DNA from: Planctomycetota bacterium
GTDB lineage: Bacteria > Planctomycetota > UBA8108 > SXIK01
Direction: 5' to 3'
DNA: 64,000 nt
Assembly (NCBI GenBank): GCA_965223845.1
Contig: CBDCXR010000004.1
Coordinates: forward strand, 7,488,001-7,552,000
In this document: piece after piece, positions 10,819-43,756 of the stretch
Layout: the number at the start of each line of letters is the position of its first letter
Numbering within the stretch: position 1 is the first letter of the stretch
Made by a program: the position numbers and the translations under genes
Notes under the pieces: generated by a model
What the model was told of the DNA's origin: nothing
What the model saw: the letters and a program-made list of their open reading frames with translations, nothing else
Database searches by the model: none

Positions 10819-10935
10819 GCCTCAGCGGTGCGACCGGCCCGAGATTCGACGATTTCGTGGCGACTGGAGTTTCGACATTCCTGAAAGAAGATCCGGGGCG
10901 TGAAGAGTGTCGACGGCCGGCCCGGTGGGTTCGCG

Positions 10936-11106
10936 TCAAGACTCCTTCAACTTCTCGATCTCGGCCTCAGCGGCCGCGATTTCCGTTTCGATTCGGTTCA
11001 CTTCGGCGGCGTCGTCGAGTTGCGACTTCGCGCCCTTGAGCTGCTGGCGAAGCAGATTGAGTTTCTGGCGCAGGACCTGCACTCGCTTCTTGGCTTTTTT
11101 GTCCAC
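10936..11106 (-). CDS. Small 56-aa coiled-coil protein (absent from the ORF track)
   Basis: GTG start; MDKKAKKRVQVLRQKLNLLRQQLKGAKSQLDDAAEVNRIETEIAAAEAEIEKLKES; coding-like codon usage and heptad pattern. Confidence 0.7.
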   Translation of the reverse strand: MDKKAKKRVQVLRQKLNLLRQQLKGAKSQLDDAAEVNRIETEIAAAEAEIEKLKES

Positions 11107-11469
11107 TTGGTGTTTCCGTCGGGTGGGAGCCGTGGCGACGAGACTTGCTCGCCGAACCGCCCGGCGTGCGACGGCGCGACGCGCCGGGTCGCCGACCCTC
11201 GTCGGGCCGGGCTGTGCTTCATTCTATCGGCGGCGCGCCGGCAGGGCCTCGACCCGACGGTCGATCGGGTCCGTGGTTCGCGGAGTGTGCGCGTGCAAAA
11301 AGGCTCAAGCCCGACGCGCTGGCGTACGAAGAGAACAACGAACGGCGCGCCGGCTTTTCGGCCCTTTCTCCCGCGGCGGGTCGGGTCGGCGATGCACCGG
11401 AAGGGTGGGGCGCTCAGCGAGCACCGTTCGCTGAGTCGAGACCGCGGGCGATCATCGCCGGGAGACGCG

Positions 11470-11715
11470 TTGGCTGCGCCGAAGAAGCTCTACAAGATCG
11501 GAGAGGTCATGCGCTACTCGGGCCTCTCCCGTCAGACGGTCCACAACTACACCATGCTCGGCCTCATCACCGAGGAGGAGCGGACTCCGTCGGGGCATCG
11601 GCTCTACGGCGAGGACGTCTTCGAGCGTCTCGAGCGAGTGAAAGAGCTCCGCAAGGACCACCGCCTGAAAGACATCATCGCCCTCTTCAAGGCGGAAGAG
11701 CTCGCCGGTCCCTGA
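11470..11715 (+). CDS. Stand-alone MerR-family HTH protein
   Basis: LYKIGEV...GLSRQTVHNYTMLGLI...RTPSGHRLY; TTG start after GGAG (alternative ATG at 11392). Confidence 0.85.
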   Translation: MAAPKKLYKIGEVMRYSGLSRQTVHNYTMLGLITEEERTPSGHRLYGEDVFERLERVKELRKDHRLKDIIALFKAEELAGP

Positions 11716-11920: not shown

Positions 11921-12244
11921 TCTCGAGCTTTGCCAGCGACCCTCGGTCGAATCGTCCGCGCCCCGCGCCGGACGGGACGGCCACGACGCCCCTTAGACGG
12001 GCGGTGAACGCCGACGCGGAGGAGTCGCGACCCCGAGGTCGCGATGCGCCGGCCGACGCCGCTCGAAACGAAGAAGTGGAAGAGAGATCCGGCCGCGCGG
12101 CGAAGGGTTTCGAGGTCACCTCGAAGCCGGAAGAGGAAATGGGTTCAGGAACATGGACGAGGAGGGGAGGGCTCCCTCTGCGGGGAGCCGGGTCTGTGTT
12201 CCTACCCTTTTTTTCCGTGGGCCCGGGAGGTGAAGGGGAGAGCG

Positions 12245-13816
12245 TTGAATGGCCCAGTCGGAAACGTCAGTCTGAGAGGATGGCTGAGCGCTGCGCAGAG
12301 TCTTCTCGATCGCCTCTCCGCCACTCAGAAGATCGTTGTCGTCGTCGTCGCCGTGGCGGCAACCGTGGGGATGGCGTTCGTCGCGATCCGCGGGCGTCAA
12401 CCGGAGTACACGCGACTCGAGCTTGAGTCGGCCGCCGCGCGCTCGACGCTGACGGCGAAGCTCGACGAGAACGGGATCGCTTGGCGACCCGTCCCGAATG
12501 CCGAAACGCGACCCGCGATCGAGGTCCGCGCCGGCGAAGTCGCCAAGGCTCGCCGGTGGATCGAAGCGGCGTCGAGTTCCGAGGAGTCGGACGACGCGCT
12601 GTGGTCGGAATCACCGAGCTGGCTCGGCTTCGGTCCGCGACCCGGCGAGCTCGTCCTCCAAGCGAAGCTTCGTCGATTGCGCAACACGATCTGCTGGAAT
12701 CCGCGGATCGCCGAGGCGAGCGTCGAACACGAAGACTCCGACGACCGCGCGTTCGTCCGCGGGGAGAGTAGCGGGAGCGCGTCCGTCGTTCTCAAACTGA
12801 GTCCCGGTGTCGAGCGGCTGACCGTGCGCGAGGCGCAGGCCGTCCGGACGATCGTGAGCTCGGCGTTCGGCTTCCGGCCCGACAAGGTTCACGTCGTCGA
12901 CCACAAGATGCATCGCTACGACCTCGACGACGCCGAGACGGCGGCCGCCGAAGCTCGCTCGGAAGCGCTGCGCGCAGAAGTCGAGGAGCTCCTTCAGGAG
13001 CGATTCGACGACGCCGAGTTCCGCGTCTCGGTAAGCACGGTGCTTCGGGATACGGAGGCGAGAGTCGAAGCCGGCGCCGCGCCGCGCGCGAGTGGCGGTC
13101 TTCTCGGCGCACCGCAGTTGATCGCCCTCGCGAGGCCGGCTCCTGCGGTCGCACGGACCCGCGTCGCCGCACCGCGCCCCTCGTCGGCGTCCGCGGAGGC
13201 TGCGCGAACGAGATTCGTTCGGATCCGCGTCGATCGTTCGGCCGCTCTTCGCGTAGCGCGCGGGCGGGGCGAACTCGCCGGCAGCGTCGACACTGCGCTC
13301 CGCCGCTTCGAGGCGGGAGAGGCCGCGCGCATTCGCGATCGATTGATCGACCGATCGTCGCTCCATCTCTCCGTCACCGTCTTCGATTTCGGGTCCGTCG
13401 CGCGGCCCACGCCTTCCCGCGCGGTGTCCGAGCCGGCGACCGCGCCTCCCGCCGTCGCGTCGAATCCACCACCCGAGGAGGAGAGGATCTCCCTCGTCGA
13501 GCTTCTCAATCGCGAGCGTCGATGGCTCGGCCGGGCGAGCGTCGCGCTCGGTGTCGCGGTCGTCGTCGGCCTCGGCTATTGGCTGATTCGTCGTCGCCGC
13601 TCTGGTTCCGCGAGATCCGATCGCGACGAGCGCGGTCTCCCGCCGGCGCGGCCGAAGCGGATCGAAGAGCGCGCCGGCGACCGCGCGACTCCCGACGCAA
13701 TCGCATCGATCGACACGATGAGTGGGTGGGTCACGGAACGGCCGCAGTCGGCAGCGAACGTGCTCCGGGCATGGCTCGGATCCGATTCGGGACGCGAGGC
13801 AGGGGGCGAGCGATGA
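12245..13816 (+). CDS. fliF: Highly divergent FliF-like MS-ring protein
   Basis: TM1 (IVVVVVAVAATVGMAFVAI), RBM2-like SASVVLKLSPG...AVRTIVSSAFG...KVHVVD, TM2, C-terminal PQSAANVLRAWL; first gene before fliG; start uncertain. Confidence 0.7.
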   Translation: MNGPVGNVSLRGWLSAAQSLLDRLSATQKIVVVVVAVAATVGMAFVAIRGRQPEYTRLELESAAARSTLTAKLDENGIAWRPVPNAETRPAIEVRAGEVAKARRWIEAASSSEESDDALWSESPSWLGFGPRPGELVLQAKLRRLRNTICWNPRIAEASVEHEDSDDRAFVRGESSGSASVVLKLSPGVERLTVREAQAVRTIVSSAFGFRPDKVHVVDHKMHRYDLDDAETAAAEARSEALRAEVEELLQERFDDAEFRVSVSTVLRDTEARVEAGAAPRASGGLLGAPQLIALARPAPAVARTRVAAPRPSSASAEAARTRFVRIRVDRSAALRVARGRGELAGSVDTALRRFEAGEAARIRDRLIDRSSLHLSVTVFDFGSVARPTPSRAVSEPATAPPAVASNPPPEEERISLVELLNRERRWLGRASVALGVAVVVGLGYWLIRRRRSGSARSDRDERGLPPARPKRIEERAGDRATPDAIASIDTMSGWVTERPQSAANVLRAWLGSDSGREAGGER

Positions 13817-15039
13817 CCCGCGACGAGCTGCCATCCGTCTCGACTCGGGGCGCGGTCGGCGAGATCGAGGACGAAGCCGACGACGGGCACTCGCAGGCGT
13901 TCGGTCCCGCGGAGGAGTCCGAGTCGACGCTCGATGCGGGGGAGGGGGAAGCGCCGCTCGATCGAGACCTCGGCCTCGATCTCGCCAAAGGCGGTGGGGA
14001 CGGCGCCGACGGCTCTCCACTCGGCGGTCTCGAGGAGCTCGCCGACGACGAACGCGAGGTGGCCGGCGCGACGGATCGTCTCAGCGGGCTCGCGAAGGCC
14101 GCGGTGTTCATCCTCTCGCTCGACGAATCGGCCGCGTCGAACGTCCTTCGGTGCCTCTCCGACGAGGAGCTGAGTCGCGTCGCGGCCGAGATTGCCCACC
14201 TCGGCGTCGTCGACAAGGACACGGTCGAGGCCGTCCGCAGCGAGTTTCAAACGCTCGAGGTCGCGACGGGCGTCGTTCGCGAGGGGGGCGTCGAATCAGC
14301 GTCGCGCCTTCTCAGCCGATCGCTCCCTTCGTCCCGCGCTCGCCGGATGGTGCAGCTACTCGAAGCCGGTGGGACCCAGCGCCGCTTCGGTTTTCTCTCT
14401 CGCGTTCCGGTGTCGGGTCTCGTCGCGTACCTCCAGCGGGAGCGACCGCAGACGATCGCCGTCATTCTCGCCCACATGAGCCCCGCGACGGCGGCGGAGG
14501 TCATCGAGAGACTTCCCAATCACGTTCGCCGCAAGGTTCTTCCGTCGATCGCGAAGCTCCGTCGTGTGAACGACGAGGCGCTGCGCACGATCGAGTCGGC
14601 GCTTCGGCGTCAGTTCGAAGTCGCGCGCTGTGTGAAGCTGGGCGACGGGACGAAGACCGTCGCGGAACTCTTTCGCTCCGCCGGTCGCGAGCGCGCGGAG
14701 AAGTACTACGACGATCTGGAAGCCGCCTCCGGTGAGACGGCCGTGGCCGTACGCGACCACTTGTTCGATTTCCGCGATCTCATCCATCTCGAAGATCGAT
14801 TCCTGCGGCGCTCGCTCCGAACCGTCGATCGCCGCGAGCTCGCCGTCGCGCTCACGAACGTCGACTCGCGCGCGGAAGCCAAGGTCTTTCGCGCGCTGTC
14901 GCGCCGACGTGGAGCCGCCCTTCGGCGGGAGCGTCAGGCTCTCGGTCCGGTCCGTCTTTCCGACGTCGAGGTGGCGCAGCGAGCGGTCGCCGCGCGCATC
15001 GCCGAGTTTCGCCGCGGTCGCGAGGAGAAAGGCGCGTGA
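13813..15039 (+). CDS. fliG: Flagellar motor switch protein FliG-like
   Basis: LSGLAKAAVFILSL, ERPQTIAVILAHM, LFDFRDL, LGPVRLSDVEVAQ; ATGA overlap with fliF. Confidence 0.9.
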   Translation: MTRDELPSVSTRGAVGEIEDEADDGHSQAFGPAEESESTLDAGEGEAPLDRDLGLDLAKGGGDGADGSPLGGLEELADDEREVAGATDRLSGLAKAAVFILSLDESAASNVLRCLSDEELSRVAAEIAHLGVVDKDTVEAVRSEFQTLEVATGVVREGGVESASRLLSRSLPSSRARRMVQLLEAGGTQRRFGFLSRVPVSGLVAYLQRERPQTIAVILAHMSPATAAEVIERLPNHVRRKVLPSIAKLRRVNDEALRTIESALRRQFEVARCVKLGDGTKTVAELFRSAGRERAEKYYDDLEAASGETAVAVRDHLFDFRDLIHLEDRFLRRSLRTVDRRELAVALTNVDSRAEAKVFRALSRRRGAALRRERQALGPVRLSDVEVAQRAVAARIAEFRRGREEKGA

Positions 15040-16046
15040 ATCGGAACCGGGAGAACGTCGCTTCCACTTGCGAGCGAACGAGTCGAGCCGAGCTCTCGGC
15101 GGCGCAGCGCACCGAGTCGTCGGGCGGGCGATGGATCCGTCCCGTCGCCCCCGCGTCGACCGCGAGGTGTTCAAGCGGCGACGCTGCGCGACCGAGCGAC
15201 GACGTTTCCGCTGTGGCTTGGGACTCGATTCGCAGCGTTCGGGCTAGACTCGCAGAGCTCAGTCGGCGTGAACGCCGCCTCGAAGACGAGATCCGCCGGC
15301 GCTGGCGTCGTCTCGCCGGCAAGGCTTGGCGGCGACGCGCGGAGGCGGAGGCCGAGCTGCGCCTGCGCCGGGCGGAGCTCGAGGACGAGAACGAGCGCCG
15401 ACGGGAGCGAGCGGAACGAGAGGGAGAGGCGCGCGGATTCGAAGCTGGATTCGAGCGCGGCCGGGAGGAGGGGCGTCGCGTCGGCGCCGAGGCCGGGCGG
15501 AGAGCCGGACGGGAGGAGGGCGAACGAGAGGGGCGCGAACGAGGAGCGAAGGAGTCGCGCGCCGAGTTCGAGCGCGCGGCATCGAGTCTGCGTGCCGCTG
15601 CCGCCGCCCTCGGTGAACGACGTGAGCAGCTCGTTGCCGACGCGCGTGGATCCCTGCTCGAACTCGCGGTCGCGATCGCACGCAAGATCATCCGCGCTCG
15701 CGTCGACGTCGATCCGGAACTGGTCGGACGCACGGTCGCCGCCGCGGCGGAGCTCGTCGTCCGCAGCCGTGCCGTGACCGTCCAGGTGCATCCCGACGAC
15801 GCGCGCTTCGTGGAGCGCGAGCTCGGTGCGCGCCCGCCGTGGGCGGAGGGTTTCGCGAGCGTCGAGGTGAGGGCGTCGACCGGTGTCGACCGCGGCGGGT
15901 GCCGGCTGGTGACGGACGTGTCGTCGCTCGATCTTCGGATCGAAGCGCAGCTCTCGCAGATCGCCACCGCGATGGCGCGCGTGTACGGCGTGGAGCGGAT
16001 GGAATCTCCCTCGCTGGATCGGAAGGTGCCATGCGCGGATATCTAG
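15036..16046 (+). CDS. fliH: FliH/SctL-like export apparatus protein
   Basis: GxxxG repeat run (GFEAGFERGREEG...), LLELAVAIARKII, VQVHPDD, VDRGGCRL; lies between fliG and fliI. Confidence 0.8.
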   Translation: MNRNRENVASTCERTSRAELSAAQRTESSGGRWIRPVAPASTARCSSGDAARPSDDVSAVAWDSIRSVRARLAELSRRERRLEDEIRRRWRRLAGKAWRRRAEAEAELRLRRAELEDENERRRERAEREGEARGFEAGFERGREEGRRVGAEAGRRAGREEGEREGRERGAKESRAEFERAASSLRAAAAALGERREQLVADARGSLLELAVAIARKIIRARVDVDPELVGRTVAAAAELVVRSRAVTVQVHPDDARFVERELGARPPWAEGFASVEVRASTGVDRGGCRLVTDVSSLDLRIEAQLSQIATAMARVYGVERMESPSLDRKVPCADI

Positions 16047-17326
16047 ACATCGTCGCTGACGTCTACCCGGGCGTGCTCGAAGCGCGGATCGATCGCGTGT
16101 TCGGCACGACGGCGGAGAGTCGAGGTCTCACGGCCCCGCTCGGCGCGACTTGTGCGATCGAGTCGCGGTCCGGCCACCGCGTCGAGGCCGAGGTGATCGG
16201 TTGCCGGAAGAATCACGCGATCCTCGCTCCGATCGGAGAGTTGCGCGGTGTCGCCGCCGGCGATCGCGTCGTGTACCGCGGAACGAGCGGAGTCGTCCGA
16301 GTGGGGATGGATCTTCTCGGCTGCGCGGTCGATGCTTCCGGCCGATCTCTCGACTCGCGCGGGCACGAATCGCGCGGAGCACTCGTCCCCATCGAGCCCT
16401 GTGAGATCGAACCACGCCGCGCGCTTTCCGCCGAGCGATCGTTCGTCACCGGCGTCCGCGCGATCGACGGTTTGTTTCCGGTCGGACGGGGACACCGCGT
16501 CGCGGTCGTCGCCGCGCCGGGTCTCGGGACGACGACGCTCTTTCGCTCGATCGCAAATGGAGCCGTCGCCGACGCGATCGTTCTCGCGTTCATCGGTGGA
16601 AGTCGACAAGACGCGATCGAGCTCTTCGCAGCGGAGCTCGCCCCTGGCGTCCGCGCGCGGTCGGTCGCAGTGATCGCGGCTGACGATGAGCCGCCGCTCG
16701 CTCGTTCGCGTGCGGCGCTCACGGCGACCGCGATCGCGGAGTTCTTCCGCGCCGCCGGGAAAAACGTCCTCCTTCTCGTCGACTCGCTCTCCGCGAGCGT
16801 CGACGCGCACGCGACACTCGGCGCGGCCGGAGGCGAGCGCCGGGACCCGCGCGGAATCCCGCCGTCGTCGTTCCCGTGGATCGCTAGGCTCCTGGGTCGC
16901 TGCGGGCGAGCGCCGTCCGGCAGCCTCACGGGAATCTACGCCGTGGCGGCGCCCGGAAACGATTCCGGCGCGGAATCCGTCGTGACCGAGCGGGTGCGGG
17001 CGCTCGTCGACAGCGAACTTCGACTCTCGCGTCGTCTAGCCGAACGAGGTCACTACCCGGCGATCGACCTCGGGTCGAGCTTCGTGCGCGGTGCGGAGCG
17101 GGTCCGATCGGCCGAAGTGGACGCAGCTGCCCGCGGGCTGCGGTCGCGGTGGTTGCGCGAGGACGCCGCGAGGGAGGCGAGCGTCGACGCGCCGCGCGAG
17201 TCGCCGCTCGACGAATTTCTCCGCCAAGCGCCGTCGGCGCCTGAGCCGTACGAGGCGACGATCGCACAGCTCACCCAGTGCGGCGCCGCCTTCCGACGGA
17301 ACGATCGCCTTGAGCAAAGCGAGTGA
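16031..17326 (+). CDS. fliI: FliI/SctN-like export ATPase homologue with degenerate catalytic motifs
   Basis: TGVRAIDGL, AEFFRAAGKNVLLLVDS, LSRRLAERGHYPAID; Walker A reads APGLGTTT and the GERGRE site reads GGSRQD. Confidence 0.85.
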   Translation: MRGYLDIVADVYPGVLEARIDRVFGTTAESRGLTAPLGATCAIESRSGHRVEAEVIGCRKNHAILAPIGELRGVAAGDRVVYRGTSGVVRVGMDLLGCAVDASGRSLDSRGHESRGALVPIEPCEIEPRRALSAERSFVTGVRAIDGLFPVGRGHRVAVVAAPGLGTTTLFRSIANGAVADAIVLAFIGGSRQDAIELFAAELAPGVRARSVAVIAADDEPPLARSRAALTATAIAEFFRAAGKNVLLLVDSLSASVDAHATLGAAGGERRDPRGIPPSSFPWIARLLGRCGRAPSGSLTGIYAVAAPGNDSGAESVVTERVRALVDSELRLSRRLAERGHYPAIDLGSSFVRGAERVRSAEVDAAARGLRSRWLREDAAREASVDAPRESPLDEFLRQAPSAPEPYEATIAQLTQCGAAFRRNDRLEQSE

Positions 17327-17679
17327 GAGGTAAAGCCGACGTGGTCGCAAAAAAGGAATCGGGCGCCGTGAACGCACTCGAATCAGCTCCGGCAGGACCG
17401 GCGGGCGCAGACGACCGCTCGGGCTCGGAGTCGAGCGCAGCGTACCGCGGCATCCACTTGAGTGTCCGCGCGGAGCTCGGCCGTACGCGGATGAAGTTGA
17501 AGGACGCGGTGGAGCTCGAGGCCGGAGCGGTCGTCGATCTCGATCGGAAACCGGGCGATCCCGTCGACCTTCTCGTCGAAGGCGTGGTGATCGCGCGCGG
17601 AGTCGTGCTCGTCGTCGACGATTGTTTCTGCGTCCGAATCACCGAGGTCCTTTCGGAAAAGGAAGAGAGTGCACCATGA
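17323..17679 (+). CDS. fliN: Flagellar switch protein FliN
   Basis: SpoA domain: VRAELGRTRM...GAVVDLDRKPGDPVDLLVEGVVIARGVVLVVDDCFCVRITEV. Confidence 0.9.
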   Translation: MRGKADVVAKKESGAVNALESAPAGPAGADDRSGSESSAAYRGIHLSVRAELGRTRMKLKDAVELEAGAVVDLDRKPGDPVDLLVEGVVIARGVVLVVDDCFCVRITEVLSEKEESAP

Positions 17680-18332
17680 CGATGACCGCGAAGCGTCTCG
17701 TCCCAGGAATCGCGGCGCTGCTGATCCTCACGGGGATCGGTGCCGGTTCGGTTTCCGCCGATTCGACCGGCGGATTCGTTCGCGCGGGCGATTCGGTGAG
17801 CGACGTGCTCTCGGGCGCGCCATCGACCGAGAGCGACCGCGCGGAATCGAGTTTGGTCGGAGGTTGGCAGCTCGCCGGTCTCGGCGTCCTCCTCGTCGGT
17901 CTGGCGAGTTTCGCGTGGCGACTTCGTTCGCGCGGACTCGTTCGTCGGCGCGGCGCGTCGGAAGGGGGAACGATCACGATCGTCGATCGGGTCGCGCTCT
18001 CACCGCGGCATGCGGTGGCGGTGCTCCGGGTGTCGGAACGGACGCTCGTCGTCGGCTTTTCCGGTGATCGGGTCTCGCCTCTCGCTGAGTGGGGGGGCGA
18101 CGCGCTCGCCGGTGGCACGTCGGCAGAGACGGCGCCCGAGCGGCCGGAATCGTACTGGTTTCGCAACCCGCGCGACGCGAGCGGCGGCGCTCCCGAGACC
18201 ACGCTCGGGGCGAGCAGTGGATCGAGCGACGTTTGGGACCGCGACCTCGCCCCGTACCGGCGCGAAGTGACCCGGCTCAAAGAAGCGCTCGAGTCCTGGC
18301 GGGAGAATACCACGCCGCCTTCGAGCGAGTGA
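17676..18332 (+). CDS. fliO: FliO-like export gate assembly chaperone
   Basis: TM segment followed by ITIVDRVALSPRHAVAVLRVSERTLVVG; located between fliN and fliP. Confidence 0.75.
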   Translation: MTMTAKRLVPGIAALLILTGIGAGSVSADSTGGFVRAGDSVSDVLSGAPSTESDRAESSLVGGWQLAGLGVLLVGLASFAWRLRSRGLVRRRGASEGGTITIVDRVALSPRHAVAVLRVSERTLVVGFSGDRVSPLAEWGGDALAGGTSAETAPERPESYWFRNPRDASGGAPETTLGASSGSSDVWDRDLAPYRREVTRLKEALESWRENTTPPSSE

Positions 18333-18359: not shown

Positions 18360-19223
18360 GTGCGCATGGGAACGCGACGACAGCGAGGCGGCGGTACTCT
18401 GCGCGGTAGCGCGGCGAGAGCCGGCGCGGTCACGATCGCGTGGCTCGTCTTCGCCGCCGGCGCGCCCGAGGTGGTGTGCGCCGTCGAGCCGGCGGACGCC
18501 GACAGCGTCCTACGGAACCTCGTCGGTCTCGAGCCGAGCGGTGCGCCGATGGCGATGCGGGTGCTCGTGCTTGTCACCGTGCTCGGAATCGTGCCGTCGA
18601 TCATTCTCTTGACGACCTGTTTCCCGCGCATCTTGATCCTCCTTTCGTTCCTCCGCCGTGCGCTCGGAACCCAGGATCTCCCGCCGCAGTCGGTCGTCAC
18701 CGGGCTCGCGCTCGTTCTCACCGTCGTCGTCATGCTCCCCGTTTGGCGAGAAGTGCACGCGAAAGCGTACGCGCCGCTCGTCGCCGGCGAGATCGAGACC
18801 GTCGAAGAGGCGCTCGCGCGAGCCGAGCGGCCGATCAAGGAGTTCATGCTTCGGCAGACGCTGCGGCGCGATCTCGCGCTCATGCTCGAGATCTCCGGCG
18901 AGACGCCGGCGCCCGCGACCTCGTCCTCGACGACGGCGGCTCCGAGTGGGAACGCGAACGGCGAGATCGATGCGGCGGACCTGCCGATCTTCGTCGTCCT
19001 CCCCGCGTTCGTTCTGAGCGAGCTCAAGCTCGCGTTTCAGATGGGATTCCTCATCTTTCTGCCGTTCGTGGTCATCGATCTCGTCGTGTCGGCCGTGCTT
19101 CTTTCGATGGGGATGTTCATGCTGCCTCCCGTTCTGGTCTCGCTCCCGCTCAAAGTGCTCGTATTCGTGATGGTGGACGGCTGGAACCTCATCGTCGGTC
19201 AGATGCTGCAGAGCTTCGCCTAG
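18360..19223 (+). CDS. fliP: Export gate protein FliP
   Basis: TTCFPRILILLSFLRRALG, PAFVLSELK.AFQMGFLIFLPFVVIDLVVS..L.SMGMFMLPP...DGW. Confidence 0.95.
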   Translation: MRMGTRRQRGGGTLRGSAARAGAVTIAWLVFAAGAPEVVCAVEPADADSVLRNLVGLEPSGAPMAMRVLVLVTVLGIVPSIILLTTCFPRILILLSFLRRALGTQDLPPQSVVTGLALVLTVVVMLPVWREVHAKAYAPLVAGEIETVEEALARAERPIKEFMLRQTLRRDLALMLEISGETPAPATSSSTTAAPSGNANGEIDAADLPIFVVLPAFVLSELKLAFQMGFLIFLPFVVIDLVVSAVLLSMGMFMLPPVLVSLPLKVLVFVMVDGWNLIVGQMLQSFA

Positions 19224-19251: not shown

Positions 19252-19521
19252 ATGGACATCGAGATCGCCGTCGAACTTTGCCGCCGCGCACTCGCGCTCG
19301 CGATGCAGATCGGCCTTCCGATTCTCACGGTGGGCCTCGTGGTGGGTCTCGTCGTCAGCGTCGCGCAGGCGGCGACTCAGATCCAGGAACAGACGCTCTC
19401 CTTCATCCCGAAGATGGCAGCGATGGTCGCGGCCGTGTTCTTGCTTCTTCCGTGGGTGCTCTCGGTCGTGACGACCTACACGCACCAAGTGCTCAGCCGC
19501 CTCGCGAGCGGGGGGCCGTGA
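19252..19521 (+). CDS. fliQ: Export gate protein FliQ
   Basis: GLVVGLVVSVAQAATQIQEQTLSFIPK. Confidence 0.95.
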   Translation: MDIEIAVELCRRALALAMQIGLPILTVGLVVGLVVSVAQAATQIQEQTLSFIPKMAAMVAAVFLLLPWVLSVVTTYTHQVLSRLASGGP

Positions 19522-19629: not shown

Positions 19630-20451
19630 ATGCCCAGTGTAGACATCCTTTCCGAGTGGCTCGCCGCCGCGGCGCGAAGTCCCGAGGGCCAGATGCATCT
19701 CCTCGCGACCGCGCGGATTCTCGGGCTCGTTCTCGTCGCGCCGTGTTTCTCGAGTCGTGCGTTGTCGATGCGGCTCAAAGTGGCGATCGCGCTCGTCCTC
19801 GGACTCGCGATCGCCGTGCACCCGTCGAACGCGTCGCGGCTTCCTCCGGCGAGTGCGGCGGTCCCTTGGCTCGCCATCGCGACGGAAGGGATGATCGGGG
19901 CGGCGTTCGGGTGGGCGGTGTTCCTCGTCTTCGGTGCCGTCCGCTCGATGGCGACGCTTTTCTCCGAGCAGATCGGCTTCGGCTTCGGAGGGATCATCGA
20001 TCCTTCGTCGGGACCGGGTTCGGCGGTCCTCCGCGGGCTGTTCGGCGCGCTCGCCCTCTTCGTCCTTCTCGCGACGGATCTCCATCACGCGCTCCTTCGC
20101 GGCGTCGCCGAGAGCTTTGCGGTCATCCCGCCCGGGCAGGTGTTCGCCGCGGGCGTCGTCGATGGCCTGGCCCGACTCGCTCTCGCCGGCGGCGCCTTTC
20201 TCTTCGAGGCGGTCGTTCTCCTCGCGCTTCCCGTGTCAGCCGTACTGATGCTCGTCACGGTTGCGCAGGGCGTCATGACTCGACTCTTTCCGGAGCTCGA
20301 GACGGTGCTCTTCGGAATGCTCCTTCGGGGGCTCGTCGCGATCGGAGTCATCGCGTTCGCCCTGCCGTCTTTCGTGACGGCGAGCGAATCGCTGCTCACC
20401 GCCGCCCTCGAGGAGGGTCGTACCCTCGTTCGCAGTTTGACGACTCCTTGA
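19630..20451 (+). CDS. fliR: Export gate protein FliR (divergent)
   Basis: ARILGLV..APCF, EGMIG, QIGFGFGGIIDP, LHHALL, LALP, RLFPEL; multiple TM segments after fliQ. Confidence 0.85.
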   Translation: MPSVDILSEWLAAAARSPEGQMHLLATARILGLVLVAPCFSSRALSMRLKVAIALVLGLAIAVHPSNASRLPPASAAVPWLAIATEGMIGAAFGWAVFLVFGAVRSMATLFSEQIGFGFGGIIDPSSGPGSAVLRGLFGALALFVLLATDLHHALLRGVAESFAVIPPGQVFAAGVVDGLARLALAGGAFLFEAVVLLALPVSAVLMLVTVAQGVMTRLFPELETVLFGMLLRGLVAIGVIAFALPSFVTASESLLTAALEEGRTLVRSLTTP

Positions 20452-20483: not shown

Positions 20484-21287
20484 GTGAGTGACACGACCGA
20501 AAGAACCGAACGAGCGACCCAGAAGCGGCGCGAAGAAGCGCGCGCACAAGGGCGCATCCCGAAGAGCCGAGACCTCGTGCTCGCGCTCTCGCTCGTCGGG
20601 AGCTTCCTCCTGCTTCGGGCGGCGGGGGGACCCGTGGGCGACGATCTCCTCGGGTTCGTTCGAAGGTCCTTCGCCGAATTGAGCACCGCTTCCGAGCTCC
20701 GGACCTTCGACGTCCATGCCGTGCTCGTAGCGGGGATCGGCGTGTTCACGTCGGCCGTTCTCCCGTTCGCCCTCGTCGCCCTCGGAGTGACGATCGCGTC
20801 CTTCGTCGTCCAGGGGGTCTTCGTGCCGGCACCGCACTTGGTCCTCCCGCGGCCCGCACGGCTTCATCCGCTCGAAGGGATCCGCCGAACCGTTCGCCTC
20901 GAGAGTCTCGCGCTCGTTGGCTTCGCACTCCTCAAGCTCGCTCTCGTAGCGGGGTTTCTTTGGACTGCGATCGCGTCCGCCCTGGTCGACCCGAGCACCG
21001 TGACCGTGAAGAACGGGCGCTTTCTCACGCCGGAGGCGCTCTCCTCGTTCGGACTCGCGCTCGCGTGCGGACTCGCCGGCGCGGCGCTTCTCGACGTGAT
21101 CGTTCAGCGTTGGCTTTACGAGCGAAGCTTGCGCATGACCCCGGCGGAAGTGCGGGAAGAGGCGCAGGAGATGGAAGGGAACAGCAGCGTCAAGCGACAG
21201 CGGCGCCGCTTTTCGCGCTCGCTTCAGGGCGCCGGTCACGATCGTGTCGAGTCCGCTCCGCCGCTCGCCGGAGGGGGTGAGAGATGA
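20484..21287 (+). CDS. flhB: FlhB-like protein lacking the cytoplasmic NPTH domain
   Basis: ERTERATQKRREEARAQGRIPKSRDL, TM region, LRMTPAEVREEAQEMEGNSSVK then stop at 267 aa; no NPTH. Confidence 0.85.
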   Translation: MSDTTERTERATQKRREEARAQGRIPKSRDLVLALSLVGSFLLLRAAGGPVGDDLLGFVRRSFAELSTASELRTFDVHAVLVAGIGVFTSAVLPFALVALGVTIASFVVQGVFVPAPHLVLPRPARLHPLEGIRRTVRLESLALVGFALLKLALVAGFLWTAIASALVDPSTVTVKNGRFLTPEALSSFGLALACGLAGAALLDVIVQRWLYERSLRMTPAEVREEAQEMEGNSSVKRQRRRFSRSLQGAGHDRVESAPPLAGGGER

Positions 21288-23485
21288 GCGCCGCACGCCG
21301 GCCGGCTTCCGCATCGAGTCGATTCGCCTGGAGCTCTCCGTCGATGCACCGTCAGCCGCCGCTCTTTGCACCGCGATCGGCCGGAAACTCCGATCTCGCC
21401 GTTGTCGCCGCGCTCCTCGGGATCCTCTTCGTCATTCTTGTTCCGCTCCCGACGTGGCTGATCGACGGCCTTCTCGTCGTCAATGTCGTCGCATCGCTTC
21501 TTATCCTGATGACGACTGCTTGTCTCTCCGCTCCGCTCGAGTTCAGCGTGTTTCCGTCGGTCCTCTTGATCGCGACCTTCTTTCGGCTCGCACTCAACAT
21601 CGGGACGACGCGACTCATCCTCGGGGGAGACGGCGGTGCGACCGCCGCCGGCGGCGTCATCGAGGCATTCTCGACCTTCGTGGCCGGAAGCAATCTCGGC
21701 GGCGGCAGCGGGAGCAATCTCATCGTCGGACTGATTGTGTTCGCGATCATCATGGTCGTTCAGTTCGTCGTCATCACGAAAGGGACGACCCGCGTCTCCG
21801 AGGTGACCGCTCGGTTCACACTCGACGCGATGCCGGGGAAGCAGATGAGCATCGACAGCGATCTCGCTGCGGGTCTCATCGACGACGCGACCGCGCGCGA
21901 GCGACGCCGTGAGGTGAGTCGCCAAGCCGAGTTCTACGGCGCGATGGACGGGGCGAGCAAGTTCGTGCGCGGCGAGGCCCTCGCGGGCCTCGTCATCACG
22001 CTCGTCAACGTCGGCGCGGGTTTCCTCGTGGGCGTCTTCCACCACGGATTCTCGGTGGGGGACTCCGCGGAAATCTTCACCCGCCTCACGATCGGCGACG
22101 GCCTCGTGAGTCAAATCCCCGCGCTCATGGTCTCGGTCGCGACGGCGCTCATCGTGACGAAGAACGCGGCGGGGGAGAACCTGGGTCGCGACCTCTGGGA
22201 CCAGCTCTTCGCGAACGACCGAATCCTCTTCATGGTGTCGGCGTTTCTCCTCCTGCTCATCCCCTCGGGAATTCCGGCCGAGGCGCTCATCCTCGGCGCG
22301 ATTCTCTGCGGCGGGTTTGCGTTTCACTTGCGGAGACGACGTACTTCGGACGAGCGCGGCGAGTTCGAGGACGAGGAGGAAGAATTCGCCCTCGAAACCG
22401 GCGAGGCAGCGGGCGTCGAGCAGGAAGACGTTCGTTCACTCCTCGCCGTGGAGTCGATCGAGCTCGAGCTCGGCTTCCGCCTCGTCGGTCTCGTGGACGA
22501 GGAGCGTGGCGGAGACTTACTCGAGCGGATCGCGCGCGTGCGCGAGCGCGTTGCGATCGAGCTCGGATTCGTTCTGCCGCCGATTCGAGTTCACGACAAC
22601 ATCCGCGTGCGTCCGACGGAGTACACGATTCGACTCCGGGGAAACTCGCTCGGATGTTGGCGCGTCTATCCCGATCGATGGTTCGCGCTTCGCGGACCGG
22701 GAGTCGATGACGATGTCGAGCTCGAAGGAATCTCGGGTCGCGATCCACTCACGGGGGAAGCCGGCGTGTGGATCGACGACGATCGATCGCCTGCGGCCGG
22801 TCGCGCCGGGTGGACGGTGCGATCGGTGGCCGAGCTCCTCAGCGATCACCTCGAGAGCTTCGTCCGCTCCCACTCCTTCGAGATCTTGAGCCGCGAAGAA
22901 GTCGCGCGACTCGTCGCAGACCTCCGCACGCGCGCGCCGGTCGTCGTCGACGAGCTCATCCCCGCCCAGATGAAGCTCGGGCAGATCCACCGAGTTCTCG
23001 AGGAACTTCTGCGCGAGAACGTGAGCGTGCGCGACCTCGAGACGATCCTCACGGCGCTCGCCGACGCGCGGGAAGCGGGGGTGACCGAGATCGACGGGCT
23101 CGTCGCGCGGGTGCGGCGAGCGCTCGCGCGAACGATCTGCGGATCGGTCGCGGATGCCGAGCGGCGAATCCACGGCCGCCGGATCGACCCGGAGCTCGAG
23201 GACTTCCTCGCCGCCTCGATCCAGAGCGAAGCGCGACGGTTCGCACTCGCGCCGGGCGTCGCCGAATCGCTGGCGGGGACGCTCGCCGCCTCCCTCTCCG
23301 CCGGCGTCGATCGCGCCGGGGGAGTCGTGTTGTGCTCGGCGGCGATTCGCGCGCCGCTCCAGCGGCTCCTTCGCGAGACAGCCGGCCGCGCGACGGTGAT
23401 CGCGTACGACGAAGTGTGTGAAGGGTACCGGATCGAGTCTGCCGGATCGATCCGATTGGAAGAACTCGAACGAGCACTTTCGTAG
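21284..23485 (+). CDS. flhA: Export apparatus protein FlhA
   Basis: FRLALNIGTTRLIL, RVSEVTARFTLDAMPGKQMSIDSDL, FYGAMDGASKFVRG, TIGDGLVSQIP; alternative start ATG 21344. Confidence 0.95.
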   Translation: MSAARRPASASSRFAWSSPSMHRQPPLFAPRSAGNSDLAVVAALLGILFVILVPLPTWLIDGLLVVNVVASLLILMTTACLSAPLEFSVFPSVLLIATFFRLALNIGTTRLILGGDGGATAAGGVIEAFSTFVAGSNLGGGSGSNLIVGLIVFAIIMVVQFVVITKGTTRVSEVTARFTLDAMPGKQMSIDSDLAAGLIDDATARERRREVSRQAEFYGAMDGASKFVRGEALAGLVITLVNVGAGFLVGVFHHGFSVGDSAEIFTRLTIGDGLVSQIPALMVSVATALIVTKNAAGENLGRDLWDQLFANDRILFMVSAFLLLLIPSGIPAEALILGAILCGGFAFHLRRRRTSDERGEFEDEEEEFALETGEAAGVEQEDVRSLLAVESIELELGFRLVGLVDEERGGDLLERIARVRERVAIELGFVLPPIRVHDNIRVRPTEYTIRLRGNSLGCWRVYPDRWFALRGPGVDDDVELEGISGRDPLTGEAGVWIDDDRSPAAGRAGWTVRSVAELLSDHLESFVRSHSFEILSREEVARLVADLRTRAPVVVDELIPAQMKLGQIHRVLEELLRENVSVRDLETILTALADAREAGVTEIDGLVARVRRALARTICGSVADAERRIHGRRIDPELEDFLAASIQSEARRFALAPGVAESLAGTLAASLSAGVDRAGGVVLCSAAIRAPLQRLLRETAGRATVIAYDEVCEGYRIESAGSIRLEELERALS

Positions 23486-23551: not shown

Positions 23552-24799
23552 ATGACGTTTCGCCTCACTCGTATCGAGGCGCCGACCATGGATGAAGCGC
23601 TCGATAAGGTGCGCGACATGTTCGGCAGCGATGCGATGATCGTGAGCTCTCGCACGTTTCGTCGCGGGGGCGTGCTCGGCTTCGGTGGCCGCGAAGTTGT
23701 CGAGGTGTTCGCCGCCGACACGCGTTCGCGGATCGAGAACGTCGAGCGCGAGCGATCGAATCGCGTCCGGCCAGAGGACTCCAGCCCGGCCGCGGTGCTG
23801 AGTCGCTCTCCGAAGCCGGGCTCGGGCGGCGAGAGCGCGAACGGGGGCACGGGGAAAGCGAGCGGCGGTGCGGAGGCGGAGAACGGAGCCGCGTCCGCGG
23901 GGGGCAAAGGTCCGGCGTTCGAGGAGTTCGCGAGCGCGCTCGGACAGATTCGAGCCGAGATTCGCCAGTTCGTCTCGCGGACCGGCGGAGTGCATCACTA
24001 CAACCATCCGTTCCTCGCCGAGTGCTACGACCTCCTCGTCACGTGTGAGGTCGACGCTCAGGTCGCGGATCGCATCGTCCAGCTCATCTCCCACCTCAAC
24101 ATCCCGGACGGCTTCCCGGATCCGTCGCGCGTGCGCTCGGTCGTGCAAGCGCAGCTCGCGAAGCTGTTCGTCCCTCCGGCCGCCGCCGATGCGACGAAGA
24201 AGCCGCAGTTGATCTCTCTCATCGGGCCGACGGGCGTCGGGAAAACGACGACGATCGCCAAGCTCGCCGCGCGGGCGAAGATCAACGAGGGGCTGAGCGT
24301 CGGACTCGTCACGCTCGACACCTTCCGCATCGCCGCCATCGATCAACTCGAGAAATATGCGGAGATCATCGGGCTGCCGATGGCCGTCGCAACGCAGCCG
24401 CAGGAACTCGTCGAGGTCATCGACGAGTTTCGCGAGCGCGGAGTCGACCTCGTCTTCGTCGACTCCGCGGGAAGGAGTCATCGCGATGAGATGAAGATGG
24501 CGGAGCTTCGCGCATTCCTTTCCGTTCTACCGGATGTCGAGGTGCACCTCGTCCTCAGCACGACGACCCACGGCTCGACTCTCGAGAACGTCGCGAGTCG
24601 ATTCGCCGGCATCGGCTTCGATCGCCTGATCCTCACCAAGGTGGACGAGTCCGTCTCGTTCGGCGCACTCGTGAAGACGCTCCTCGCGATCGGTCGCCCG
24701 GTCTCGTTCGTCACCGACGGGCAGAACGTTCCGGACGACATCCTTCCCGGCGATCCGAACCGGCTCGCCAGTCTGGTTCTGAAGACGAAGGCGCAATGA
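23552..24799 (+). CDS. flhF: SRP-family GTPase FlhF
   Basis: GPTGVGKTTTIAKLAA, DTFRIAAIDQL, DSAG, TKVDE, GQNVPDD. Confidence 0.95.
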   Translation: MTFRLTRIEAPTMDEALDKVRDMFGSDAMIVSSRTFRRGGVLGFGGREVVEVFAADTRSRIENVERERSNRVRPEDSSPAAVLSRSPKPGSGGESANGGTGKASGGAEAENGAASAGGKGPAFEEFASALGQIRAEIRQFVSRTGGVHHYNHPFLAECYDLLVTCEVDAQVADRIVQLISHLNIPDGFPDPSRVRSVVQAQLAKLFVPPAAADATKKPQLISLIGPTGVGKTTTIAKLAARAKINEGLSVGLVTLDTFRIAAIDQLEKYAEIIGLPMAVATQPQELVEVIDEFRERGVDLVFVDSAGRSHRDEMKMAELRAFLSVLPDVEVHLVLSTTTHGSTLENVASRFAGIGFDRLILTKVDESVSFGALVKTLLAIGRPVSFVTDGQNVPDDILPGDPNRLASLVLKTKAQ

Positions 24800-24803
24800 G
24801 GGC

Positions 24804-25661
24804 GTGACGATGGACCAGGCAGAGAATCTCAGGAATCTGGTGAGGGGCACCGAGAGCCGGGCGCGCTTCCTCGCCGTCACCAGCGGAAAAGGGGGGGTCG
24901 GGAAGACCAATCTCGCCGTCAACCTGGGCGCGGCGATGAGCCGTCTCGGGAAGAAGGTGATCCTCGTCGACGTCGACATCGGCCTCGCGAACGCGGACGT
25001 GATGTTATCGGTCGCTCCGCGGCTCAATCTCGGCCACGTCCTCGCGGGCGAGGTCTCGGTGCTCGAGGTGCTGACGCCGACGCCGAGCGGGGTCCTTCTC
25101 CTCCCCGGATGCGTGGGAATGCGGCACGTTTCCGATCTCGACGATCACGAGCGCGAGTTCCTCGTGCGCGGCTTTCAAGAGCTGGAGGCCTACGCCGACA
25201 TCGTCCTCATCGACACCGGCGCAGGAATTTCTCGGAATGTCGTTCAGTTTGCGTCCGCATGTGACGAGATCTTGATAGTGACGATGCCGGAACCTACCGC
25301 GATGACGGACGGTTACGCCGTGATCAAGGCGGTCGCCCGCGAAAAGGGTCGCGGGAAGATCCGGCTCATCGTCAACCAGTGCCGCGATCGAGCCGACGCC
25401 CGCCGCGTGAGCGAGCGGATCCGTATGGTCTCGAAGCGGTTTCTCGGCATCGAGGTCGAGGATCTCGGCTACGTGGTGACGGATGAGATCGTTGGACAGT
25501 CCGTGCGGGAGAGACGTCCATTCGTGCTCGAGTACCCGCGGAGTCCCGTGACGCGCTGCGTATGGGAGATCGCCGGACGCTTGGTCGCGCCCGAGAACGC
25601 GCCCGCGAGCGGTGGGGTGTTCCGCCGTTTCGCCCGCGCGCTCACGAGTGTGCTCGGTTGA
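24804..25661 (+). CDS. flhG: MinD-like ATPase FlhG/FleN
   Basis: N-terminal DQAENLR, SGKGGVGKTN, DIGLAN, DTGAG, PEPTAMTDGY. Confidence 0.95.
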   Translation: MTMDQAENLRNLVRGTESRARFLAVTSGKGGVGKTNLAVNLGAAMSRLGKKVILVDVDIGLANADVMLSVAPRLNLGHVLAGEVSVLEVLTPTPSGVLLLPGCVGMRHVSDLDDHEREFLVRGFQELEAYADIVLIDTGAGISRNVVQFASACDEILIVTMPEPTAMTDGYAVIKAVAREKGRGKIRLIVNQCRDRADARRVSERIRMVSKRFLGIEVEDLGYVVTDEIVGQSVRERRPFVLEYPRSPVTRCVWEIAGRLVAPENAPASGGVFRRFARALTSVLG

Positions 25662-25718
25662 CCGAATCGCGGATCCGATTCGATCCGTTCGGGGGAAGAG
25701 AAGATTCCAGCGAAGAGA

Positions 25719-26738
25719 ATGAGGGGAGGTACTCCGGTGAGCGGAGTCCGAGGAACCAAAGCAGGACGGTCATCCGGGAGCCAGACGGCGACTGCCACCA
25801 AGCGATCGCGGCTGGAATCGGGCGGAGAGACGTCGGCGACGACGACACTCCCGCGAAAGTCTCGACTCTCGTCTACGCGAGGCGGAGTGGCGACGCGCAG
25901 CAGTGGGAAGAGCGAGGCCGCGGCGGAGACGACCACCGCGACGAAGAGAACGCGAAAGCGCAAGATCGCCGGAGATCCGAGCGAGATCGAAGCCGTTTGG
26001 AAAGAGTTCAAGAAGACGGGCGACCAGCGGCTCCGCAATCTGCTCATCGAGCGGTACCTGCCGCTCGTCAAGTACATCGCTGAACGCCTTCTCGCAAAGC
26101 TCCCGCAGAACATCGAGCTCGACGATCTGACGAGCGCGGGGATCTTCGGGCTGATGGACGCCGTCAAGGGCTACGACCTCAGCCGCGGCGTAAAGTTCGA
26201 AACCTACTGCACGACTCGCATTCGCGGCGCGATCCTCGACGAGCTGCGCTCGCTCGACTGGGTCCCGCGGATCGTTCGGAACAAGGCGAACCGCATCGAG
26301 AACACCTGGAAGACGCTCGAGATGGAGCTCGGGCGCTCGCCGACGGACATGGAGATGGCCCGCCATCTCGAAATGACGCCCGAGGAGTACCAGGACATGA
26401 TCCGCGAGGCGAGTGCGATCACGATCGTGAGCCTCACGGACAAGACGAAGGACGATCAGGGCTCGAAGAGCCTGCGAAAGATCGATGTCCTCGAGGACAA
26501 GAAGGGAATCGACCCCGAGTACGAGCTGAAGCGGAAGGAAATCACGGACTTCATCACCCGCGGTCTCAGTCGGAAGGAGCGCCTCATCCTCCTTCTCTAC
26601 TACTACGAAGACCTCACGATGCGGGAGATCGGCGCGACGCTCAGTCTCTCGGAGTCGCGCGTCTGTCAGCTTCACTCGCGCATCATCTTCCGGCTGAAGA
26701 ATCAGCTGAAGAAGTACCAGTCGGAGCTGCTGAGCTAG
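25719..26738 (+). CDS. fliA: Sigma-28 (FliA/WhiG) RNA polymerase sigma factor
   Basis: RIRGAILDELRSLDWVPR, YYYEDLTMREIG..L.LSESRVCQLHS; basic low-complexity N-terminal extension, start uncertain. Confidence 0.95.
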   Translation: MRGGTPVSGVRGTKAGRSSGSQTATATKRSRLESGGETSATTTLPRKSRLSSTRGGVATRSSGKSEAAAETTTATKRTRKRKIAGDPSEIEAVWKEFKKTGDQRLRNLLIERYLPLVKYIAERLLAKLPQNIELDDLTSAGIFGLMDAVKGYDLSRGVKFETYCTTRIRGAILDELRSLDWVPRIVRNKANRIENTWKTLEMELGRSPTDMEMARHLEMTPEEYQDMIREASAITIVSLTDKTKDDQGSKSLRKIDVLEDKKGIDPEYELKRKEITDFITRGLSRKERLILLLYYYEDLTMREIGATLSLSESRVCQLHSRIIFRLKNQLKKYQSELLS

Positions 26739-40525: not shown

Positions 40526-41035
40526 TCACTCTGCGAAGAACGTGTCCAGTTGGCTCTTTGCCGACTGCGAGAATTCCTGCCCGAGACCGGAGGAGCCGTC
40601 GTCATGGCGCTTTGCGATGTCGCCGAAGATCTCCTGCAGCTTCTCGGCGGCTTCCTTGGCGTAGAGCCTCACCATGCCGATCGTCGTCCGCTCGTCGAAC
40701 ACCGTCGCGAGAATCGTGCGGTCGCCGACCAGGGTGAGCTGGATGTTGTCTTTGCGTCCCTGATGGAACAGCACGGAGAACTCATCCTCACCGAGGAGGC
40801 GCGCCATCTCCCGAGTCGCGGCGTAGCTGCCGGCGACGAGCGCGGACACGGCCTGCATGTCGAAGTCGTCCGTGCTCCCGGCCTTCGTCACCAAGTGCCC
40901 TTCCTTATCGATGAGGATGTTGCACTTCGAGTCGGAGAGGTTCAGGAACTCTTTGAGGACGCCGTTGATCTTATCGATGTCATCCTTGTAGAAGACGAGT
41001 CGCTTCTCTCGGATGTTGTCACTGTCCGTAATAAT
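40526..41035 (-). CDS. mglB: MglB (roadblock/LC7 GAP), probable AUU start
   Basis: LVFYKDDIDKINGVL...LIDKEGHL...ALVAGSYAA...LLGEDEF...FHQG...FDERTTIGMVRL...LDTFFAE matches the Myxococcus MglB pattern; AGGAGGT lies 5 nt before ATT at 41035. Confidence 0.85.
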   Translation of the reverse strand: MITDSDNIREKRLVFYKDDIDKINGVLKEFLNLSDSKCNILIDKEGHLVTKAGSTDDFDMQAVSALVAGSYAATREMARLLGEDEFSVLFHQGRKDNIQLTLVGDRTILATVFDERTTIGMVRLYAKEAAEKLQEIFGDIAKRHDDGSSGLGQEFSQSAKSQLDTFFAE

Positions 41036-41122
41036 GGCCCACCTCCTGAGCTCTCAATAGCTCGCTGTATGTTGACTTGTCGCTTCTTGGACCGAAGCGC
41101 CCGGCGAGTACACCCGCGGGTA

Positions 41123-42103: not shown

Positions 42104-42133
42104 CGCTTGTGTTGCTCCAGTCCGTCCCTACGG

Positions 42134-42484
42134 CTACGCGATTTGACGGTTTTGGATATCGTCCATCGCCTGCTCGATCGCCACGATTCGGCTGGCGATC
42201 TGTGTGTTCGGTTGAGTGACGACGACCAAGAACGCCTTCTGCATGTCGAAGAAAACCAGCTTGCCTTTGCTCGCGTTGAGCGTGCAGTACGTGAAGCCGC
42301 TCGTCACTTGCAACTCGCCGAGACCTCGCTTGAGAGTGACGAGGAGCGACGACGCGAACGCCGCCACCGATTCTTCCTCGAGGTCTCCGCCGAGTTCCGA
42401 GGCCACCATGATCCCGTCGGGAGTGATGACCATGCTCCCGAGCAGGTCGGCGTCACGATTCAGTTTGTTGAGGATGGTGCGCAT
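42134..42484 (-). CDS. Roadblock/LC7 domain protein (MglB/MglC-like)
   Basis: GSMVITPDGIMVASEL...VAAFAS...ASKGKLVF; 116 aa, directly upstream of mglA. Confidence 0.8.
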   Translation of the reverse strand: MRTILNKLNRDADLLGSMVITPDGIMVASELGGDLEEESVAAFASSLLVTLKRGLGELQVTSGFTYCTLNASKGKLVFFDMQKAFLVVVTQPNTQIASRIVAIEQAMDDIQNRQIA

Positions 42485-42514
42485 GATTGTTTCGGCGAAG
42501 TTCCCTGAGCTCGC

Positions 42515-43594: not shown

Positions 43595-43756
43595 GTTGAC
43601 AATCTCGTAAGCGGGAGTGTGAACAGAAAAACGAAGCGGAACGACTCGTAAAAAGTGCGTTCGAATCGAGGATAGGATGGGGGTGGGAACGGCGCAAACG
43701 ACGCGCCCCCACGGCCCGATCTTGTGTGTTTTGGGAAGTTGAAGTCCGTTAGTCGC

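Follow-up and report, generated by a model that had tools for sequence, protein, structure and literature searches.

How can a flagellum-derived gene cluster keep a full-length gene for the export ATPase FliI once the residues that make it an enzyme are gone? The question arises from a 64,000-nucleotide stretch of DNA, hereafter the window, from Planctomycetota bacterium (GTDB UBA8108; SXIK01; assembly GCA_965223845.1, contig CBDCXR010000004.1, positions 7,488,001-7,552,000). Coordinates are those of the window unless a contig or genome is named. [quoted passage not shown] From its sequence we predict a catalytically dead FliI, i.e., a pseudo-ATPase that does not hydrolyse ATP. We call the host genome G000 (completeness 91.7%) and the other genomes of its class G001-G040; G003 and G001 belong to the same family, and the flagellated relative G005 was used as outgroup.

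The gene is one open frame of 431 codons with a Shine-Dalgarno-like GGAAGG ahead of its ATG. Its product matches PF00006 with 173 bits (cut-off 29.5), and its best matches among solved structures are EscN (6njo, E 2.6e-57, residues 17-363) and Salmonella FliI (2dpy, E 1.8e-51, residues 18-356). The NCBIfam models for FliI clade 1 and SctN tied at 275 bits, and all models remained below their curated cut-offs (bits/cut-off: TIGR01026, 259.6/379.5; TIGR03496, 275.5/619.1; TIGR02546, 275.1/604.75). F1 alpha and beta and V-type B subunits match P0001 at E 1e-22 to 1e-27. With Salmonella FliI (2DPY, 5B0O) the gene product shares the N-terminal barrel and the alpha/beta domain, and the gene shares the upstream fliH and the place in the fT3SS operon. 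EscN/SctN (6NJO) is the closest solved structure, but the neighbours in G000 are flagellar (FliG, FliO, FlhF, FlhG, FliA) and the catalytic motifs are absent. PF00006 matched five proteins of G000 (AtpA, AtpD, P0001, Rho and a short Rho paralogue), of which P0001 is the only FliI-like one. The short Rho-like protein (368 residues; L005:1336-2442, at about 4.20 Mb of G000:C4) is encoded besides the regular Rho (L004). P0001 itself weakly matches the NCBIfam model 'paralog_Rho2'.

In the alignment to Salmonella FliI (5b0o, offset +21), T167 and G190 of P0001 face K188 and E211, which we take to be the Walker Lys and the catalytic Glu. The changes in P0001 include K167T, E190G, R191S, R193Q, T254S, R255A, E289G and H329E. 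Besides the remnants listed in Table 1, it reads GRCG at residues 289-292, VDSE at 326-329 and LSRRLAERGHYPAID at 332-346. D251 and R353, presumably the Walker B Asp and, by alignment, the arginine finger, are kept at invariant columns of a 63-sequence alignment; E269, R290 and the PAID motif are kept too. The first-pass annotation of the window had described a full-length gene without P-loop Lys and catalytic Glu, and the translation bears this out, with the motifs AAPGLGTTT, IGGSRQD, DSLSAS, GRCG and VDSE all where it had placed them. It had also regarded the Walker A as abnormal, which holds for the Lys-to-Thr lesion and not for AAPGLG itself, since P0025 reads AAPGLGKS. Overall, the departures far exceed chance: 62 other FliI/SctN sequences have 99 columns with at least 95% conservation, and P0001 differs at 32 of these, against 11 in the next most deviant sequence. 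The deviant columns fall mostly in the ATPase domain (28 of 83, the other 55 being kept), with one of ten in the N-terminal and three of six in the C-terminal domain.

All 29 FliI from 29 other genomes of the class carry G(S/T)GVGKS, GER(G/S)RE, DS(L/I/V)TR, LER(A/S/T)G and DG(H/Q). The 119 nearest proteins in a collection of 5.8 billion, at most 42% identical to P0001, all have GK[ST] and GE[RK]xRE, and a HMMER pass over 1.84 billion cluster representatives gave a best identity of 39%. Orthologues with the same substitutions, which the first-pass annotation had proposed to look for, were found neither in the 29 class relatives, nor among the 119 nearest proteins (5.8 billion searched), nor among the 1.84 billion cluster representatives. 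It is very improbable that P0001 is still an active ATPase working with non-canonical residues. D251 and R353 do remain, and some other nucleotide-binding folds have P-loops rich in Thr/Ser, but P0001 lacks the Walker Lys, the catalytic Glu, both adjoining Arg and the Thr-Arg that follows Walker B, in motifs that every one of these relatives and nearest proteins keeps. The coupling partner FliJ is absent as well (see below).

The gene sits where the family's own fliI is expected. G003 and G001 share the order MerR-fliFGHI-(J-like)-NOPQR-flhB(short)-flhA-flhF-flhG-fliA, and G000 has the same order without the fliJ-like gene. In the N-terminal domain, G000 is 48-55% identical to its relatives, which are 46-58% identical among themselves, and this identity follows taxonomy: 56/55/48% within the family, 40-47% within the order, 38-42% within the class and 21-31% to others. 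The ATPase domain behaves differently: G000 is 38-40% identical to relatives that are 64-72% identical to one another, and its identity is flat, at 38-42%, to all sequences. Given the synteny with G003 and G001 and the taxonomy-ranked N-terminal identities, we class the gene as vertically inherited and orthologous to the canonical fliI found in its family. A whole-protein FastTree tree placed it elsewhere, beside the degenerate P0190 and P0164 on a branch of 1.56 substitutions per site; we rejected this placement as long-branch attraction because the N-terminal identities follow taxonomy. The tree is what speaks for the hardly credible alternative that the sequence is a foreign, horizontally acquired divergent paralogue, or else an artefact of sequencing or assembly. 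The identical synteny and the ranked identities stand against a foreign origin. As for the assembly error that the first-pass annotation had itself considered, separate contigs from all four public runs (two samples of one study, possibly the source of this DNA) show no differences over 15900-17450.

Acceleration is confined to the ATPase domain of FliI; rates are normal in its N-terminal domain and in the 13 neighbouring genes. We used Tajima relative-rate tests, counting changes unique to G000 against those unique to G003 or G001, with G005 as outgroup and orthologues defined by blastp. For the whole FliI the counts are 110:42 against G003 (p 3.5e-8) and 119:31 against G001 (p 6.7e-13). The excess is found in residues 101-355 (85:19 and 90:16), next to counts of 13:14 and 14:9 in residues 1-100 and of 12:9 and 15:6 in residues 356-431. 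In G000 the other 13 genes of the cluster show no acceleration, e.g., FliH gives 25:39. FliG is skewed against G001 (59:17), but so is that of G003 (64:25), which indicates a slow G001 rather than a fast G000. The FliI of G000 preserves 112 of the 203 positions that do not vary among three relatives; for the other genes the share is 70-97%.

The loss of the catalytic site coincides with the loss of FliJ, the stalk that couples the ATPase to the export gate. In four relatives (G003, G001, G016 and G012) fliI and fliN are separated by an Arg/Glu-rich open reading frame (ORF) of 120-165 residues. For two of these ORFs the best-matching family is FliJ (TIGR02473; E 6.7e-6, below the cut-off), and a profile built from all four matched Salmonella FliJ (3AJW) with E 0.064. 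The fliI and fliN matches are 600-770 nucleotides apart in relatives, whereas in G000 the stop codon of fliI runs into the start of fliN, which leaves no space for fliJ. Searches of the whole G000 assembly (91.7% complete) with PF02050 and TIGR02473 gave no match to FliJ, and tblastn with the ORFs of the relatives gave none at E < 0.1. These models are weak, as PF02050 misses all the candidates of the relatives and TIGR02473 finds two of the four, missing those of G003 and G001, so the absence of FliJ in G000 is read mainly from gene position.

What machine would such a FliI belong to? Flagellin (PF00669), rod/hook proteins (PF06429), FliE (PF02049) and the MotB plug (PF13677) had no matches in G000 (91.7% complete), and each of these profile searches was positive in four flagellated control genomes. 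The gate genes fliPQR, flhA and flhB, together with fliH and fliI, all lie in one locus, which identifies an fT3SS gate, and with the intact FliM encoded outside the window the set of MS-ring and C-ring proteins (FliF, FliG, FliM, FliN) is complete. The FlhB of G000 ends after the linker and has no NPTH, whereas that of G005 is full length with NPTH at residue 273. Short FlhB of 263-274 residues (window 20484-21287; L037:7457-8224; L038:13293-14090) were found in G000, G003, G001, G016, G023 and G030, i.e., in six of the seven flagellin-less genomes examined; both flagellated genomes (G005, G036) have a full-length protein, as does the flagellin-less G022. The FlhB switch domain seems to be lost along with the axial genes. 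Judged by its gene content, the locus is a conserved, flagellum-derived core devoid of a filament, and not a flagellum or a flagellar motor.

By the same evidence this core is widespread in the class. Flagellin and rod/hook genes are both missing in 32 of the 41 class genomes, G000 included, and 22 of the 32 carry a FliI; the flagellin-less carriers of FliI that were examined retain the gate genes, and both FliI and flagellin are absent from ten genomes that belong to one genus. Among the FlhF-anchored loci L042-L121, 3 of 80 encode FliI, canonical in all three. Families f5 and f6 each contain both flagellated and non-flagellated genera.

We propose that G000 has kept a non-catalytic FliI as a FliH-bound scaffold, having lost the enzyme and the FliJ stalk together, and that proton motive force (PMF) would drive any remaining export; we give this reading, which is built on sequence comparisons, a probability of about 0.6. 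The core would comprise the MS ring FliF, the C ring FliG/FliM/FliN, the gate FliOPQR with FlhA and a switch-less FlhB, and FliH, FlhF, FlhG and FliA. This single lineage would have abandoned ATP hydrolysis jointly with FliJ, the stalk linking hydrolysis to FlhA. The FliI protein would still be made and kept for the function of its N-terminal domain, which would bind FliH and hold the FliH-FliI unit beneath the gate and the C ring, while the gate would transport on PMF alone. In Salmonella, FliI uses its N-terminal domain for FliH binding and ring assembly. A prediction of the complex between two copies of FliH 170-336 and residues 1-105 of P0001, made for these chains only, scored 0.31 against a mark of 0.32 and points neither way. 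The first-pass annotation had arrived at a structural role with FliH/FliN from three observations that our searches uphold, i.e., FliH retained, the N-terminal barrel kept and FliJ absent. Its scaffold idea gains support from the acceleration of the ATPase domain only; the flagellum that it had assumed does not stand, as axial and stator genes are missing.

Published work on Salmonella is consistent with such a state. There, type III secretion is possible when ATPase activity is lacking (PMC4230889), and early export continues in laboratory FliI mutants whose ATPase activity is low (PMC12802181; PMC4273619). Early export proceeds at minimal FliI ATPase activity, and the substrate switch needs nearly wild-type levels (PMC12802181). 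By analogy, a system without the FlhB switch domain or late substrates would need the enzyme least. The differences are also clear: in the ATPase-independent secretion of Salmonella the gate exports on PMF, but in engineered strains with compensating mutations (PMC4230889), and G000 would be the natural state. Relative to the Salmonella FliI mutants, the loss in G000 is natural and multiple (some 30 further conserved positions), and comes without fliJ and with no rod, hook or filament to build.

The main alternative is early pseudogenisation: FliI would be unused and drifting ahead of its first stop or frameshift, or its frame would persist solely to carry ribosomes through into fliN and the downstream genes. 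We regard this as unlikely, though well short of negligible, and several observations weigh for it and against the scaffold. G000 has 91 specific changes at positions invariant in its relatives, 20 of them to Ala, and its FliI contains 16% Ala (relatives, 9-11%), a bias that drift under GC pressure would give. An 8-residue deletion removed the near-invariant G-A-Y..G motif of the C-terminal domain, and PF18269 (C-terminal helical domain), which we take to be the part that holds FliJ/SctO, has no match in P0001 and is present in G003, G001 and G005. The AF2 model of P0001 has a pLDDT of 90 and helices at 361-430, yet it leans on canonical homologues, so that its support for folding is not independent. 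The substitutions were seen in one species only, and the stability of this state in no close orthologue among the 5.8 billion proteins and 1.84 billion representatives searched. With the nearest orthologue at about 42% identity and synonymous sites saturated, dN/dS (the ratio of non-synonymous to synonymous rates) on the G000 FliI branch is unmeasurable. No RNA runs are listed among the public runs containing the stretch. All 21 other flagellin-less class genomes that carry FliI have a canonical one, which suggests that the reduced system normally wants an active ATPase. Finally, fliJ is already deleted, and the overlaps of fliH with fliI and of fliI with fliN mean that polarity could favour an open frame, which could partly reflect selection for translation through the tightly overlapped operon.

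Drift would not, on the other hand, spare the N-terminal 100 residues, which are unaccelerated and ranked by taxonomy, and FliH, the known partner of FliI, is unaccelerated too. The 431 codons remain open, and the indels are small and all in-frame, which argues for retention of the gene. In a rough simulation of unconstrained substitution, the frame stayed open in 8%, 1% and 0.1% of replicates at 0.1, 0.2 and 0.3 changes per site. As fliJ was removed cleanly, a gene of no use could also have been deleted outright, and in a second lineage, described below, a 96%-identical pair keeps degenerate motifs in an open frame.

The retained parts of the ATPase domain bear on another alternative, a neofunctionalised sensor or regulator that would bind a nucleotide or second messenger (e.g., ATP/ADP or cyclic di-GMP) without hydrolysis and gate the export apparatus or the C ring. 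The Walker B Asp, the arginine-finger Arg, E269, R290 and PAID are kept along with most conserved ATPase-domain columns, and the length of the domain is unchanged apart from one 2-residue insertion. We nevertheless find such a sensor improbable, as the replacements are mostly Ala, Val and Ser with no new conserved motif apparent, and the new state is conserved in no orthologue found. Loss of the P-loop Lys also usually weakens nucleotide binding strongly. In favour of a sensor, export ATPases are reported to have a conserved site at which cyclic di-GMP binds (PMC4591828).

Degenerate FliI-like proteins are not limited to G000. The Walker Lys and/or the catalytic Glu are missing in 5 of 149 diverse cluster representatives (P0164, P0190, P0195, P0206 and P0260). 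P0195 combines K to T, E to I and DSLTR to DSIAA. In the other four, one of the two residues persists: either the Lys stays and the Glu is replaced by T, F or S, or the Glu stays and the Lys is replaced by A. Two short metagenomic contigs, L128 and L129, encode FliI of the P0195 type (K to T, E to I/M) in the order fliF-fliG-fliH-degenerate fliI-(183-residue MgtE_N-like membrane protein)-fliL-fliM-fliN; within the stretch that they cover, no ORF of the size of fliJ follows fliI, and fliK, flgD and flgE are missing. A P0195 copy that is 96% identical over 318 residues keeps the degenerate motifs in an open frame. Among 401 sampled Planctomycetota genomes, no close relative of P0195 was found (identity at most 49%).

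Because the family of G000 is itself canonical, the catalytic losses in G000 and in L128/L129 are independent. This raises a broader possibility, which we hold tentatively and with the odds against it: that there is a stable, recurrent ATPase-free mode of the flagellum-derived type III machine, with at least two independent origins (G000, L128/L129), in which FliI turns into a non-catalytic, stator-like scaffold of filament-less cores and FliJ is discarded simultaneously. The other degenerate FliI-like representatives may be the same phenomenon. If this were true, the core would be an undescribed organelle, either a secretion device running on PMF only or a polar platform placed by FlhF/FlhG, and not a relic.

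Non-catalytic members are known elsewhere in the superfamily. The alpha subunit of F1 and the B subunits of V1/A1 are non-catalytic and structural in their rings, as proposed here for FliI. In their hetero-hexamers, however, F1 alpha and V1 B take turns with catalytic subunits, whereas the G000 genome has no catalytic partner for P0001. The nearest described case among flagellar systems is Lysobacter enzymogenes, which has no flagellin and keeps expressed fT3SS genes that are needed to secrete non-flagellar proteins; its FliI has measured ATPase activity, FliH and FliJ are missing, and rod, hook and FlgD genes remain (PMC7688988). G000 differs, with FliH kept, FliI predicted to be dead and axial genes all gone. 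Buchnera aphidicola, also flagellin-less, keeps basal-body and export genes (PMC8109811), including rod/hook-type proteins, unlike G000, and the texts consulted report no degenerate FliI. Abby and Rocha listed partial loci in 61 replicons, all but two of flagellar origin (PMC3459982). In open-access papers and preprints we found no description of a naturally dead FliI/SctN or of this Planctomycetota core.

The need of type III export for its ATPase has so far been argued from engineered Salmonella mutants (PMC4230889, PMC12802181), to which this fliI would be a natural counterpart. The catalytic site and FliJ are gone while FliH, the anchoring domain of FliI and the whole gate are normally constrained. 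Should the protein be produced and bind FliH, the scaffold role would be separated from the enzymatic role without mutagenesis. The gene also draws attention to the conserved filament-less flagellar core in many members of the class.

The genes of the cluster (Table 1) were identified by Pfam scans of ORFs, since a gene filter at GC3 > 0.80 misses fliF to fliO. They form a tightly packed operon in the order MerR-like regulator, fliF, fliG, fliH, fliI, fliN, fliO, fliP, fliQ, fliR, flhB, flhA, flhF, flhG, fliA.

Table 1. Cluster genes in the window, with the domain and motif remnants of FliI.
Feature	Position	Strand	Remarks
MerR-family regulator	10900-11715	+	PF00376; upstream of fliF; same place in G003 and G001 (68-70% identity over the helix-turn-helix)
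fliF, divergent MS-ring protein	12044-13816	+	PF01514, E 1.3e-11
fliG	13522-15039	+	PF14842, PF14841, PF01706; longest ORF, true start uncertain, FliG_N from ORF residue 187
fliH	15036-16046	+	PF02108, E 1.4e-20; 16-nucleotide overlap with fliI start
fliI	16031-17326	+	431-residue FliI/SctN homologue, degenerate catalytic site; PF00006, E 8e-51
fliI N-terminal domain, residues 1-100	16031-16330	+	Normal family rate (Tajima counts)
Walker A remnant AAPGLGTTT, residues 161-169	16511-16537	+	Lys to Thr at residue 167
Catalytic loop remnant IGGSRQD, residues 188-194	16592-16612	+	Glu to Gly at 190; R191S, R193Q, E194D
VDSLSAS, residues 250-256	16778-16798	+	Walker B D251 kept, then degenerate Thr-Arg
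fliN	17323-17679	+	PF01052; start overlaps fliI stop
fliO	17622-18332	+	PF04347
fliP	18360-19223	+	PF00813
fliQ	19252-19521	+	PF01313
fliR	19630-20451	+	PF01311
flhB, cut off after linker, 267 residues	20484-21287	+	PF01312, positions 2-239 of 335; no NPTH or C-terminal domain
flhA, full length	21284-23485	+	PF00771, E 1.2e-214
flhF	23552-24799	+	PF00448
flhG (MinD-like)	24783-25661	+	ParA/CbiA families
fliA (sigma-28-like)	25662-26738	+	Sigma70 r2/r3/r4

Several genes of the cluster have features of their own. The MerR-family gene may regulate the reduced core; its ORF in G000 has a long N-terminal extension (271 residues, against 82 in G003, L037:18216-18464). FliF is very divergent, with PF01514 (45 bits) as its sole match and no match to YscJ_FliF_C, in contrast to G005. 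FliG has an N-terminal extension in the non-flagellate family, where FliG_N starts at ORF residues 109-187, against 26 in G005. The only fliM of G000 is isolated beside the enolase gene (L036:1213-2367, at about 586 kb of G000:C4), about 6.9 Mb from the cluster. The best-conserved genes of the cluster are FlhF (74% identity to G003) and FliA (76%), far above gate and ring proteins, and the placement and regulatory parts seem to be the most constrained in the reduced system.

Two further modules lie in the window. On the minus strand, at 40526-47005, two Roadblock/LC7 genes surround a small Ras/Arf-like GTPase, as in an MglA/MglB-like module, and are adjoined by a TPR protein and a 1082-residue protein with DUF4388, TPR, PEGA and a PQQ-like beta-propeller. 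On the plus strand, at 50309-55406, tandem PilB/GspE-like ATPases (603 and 585 residues, each with a MshEN domain) are followed by a PilC/GspF-like platform protein.

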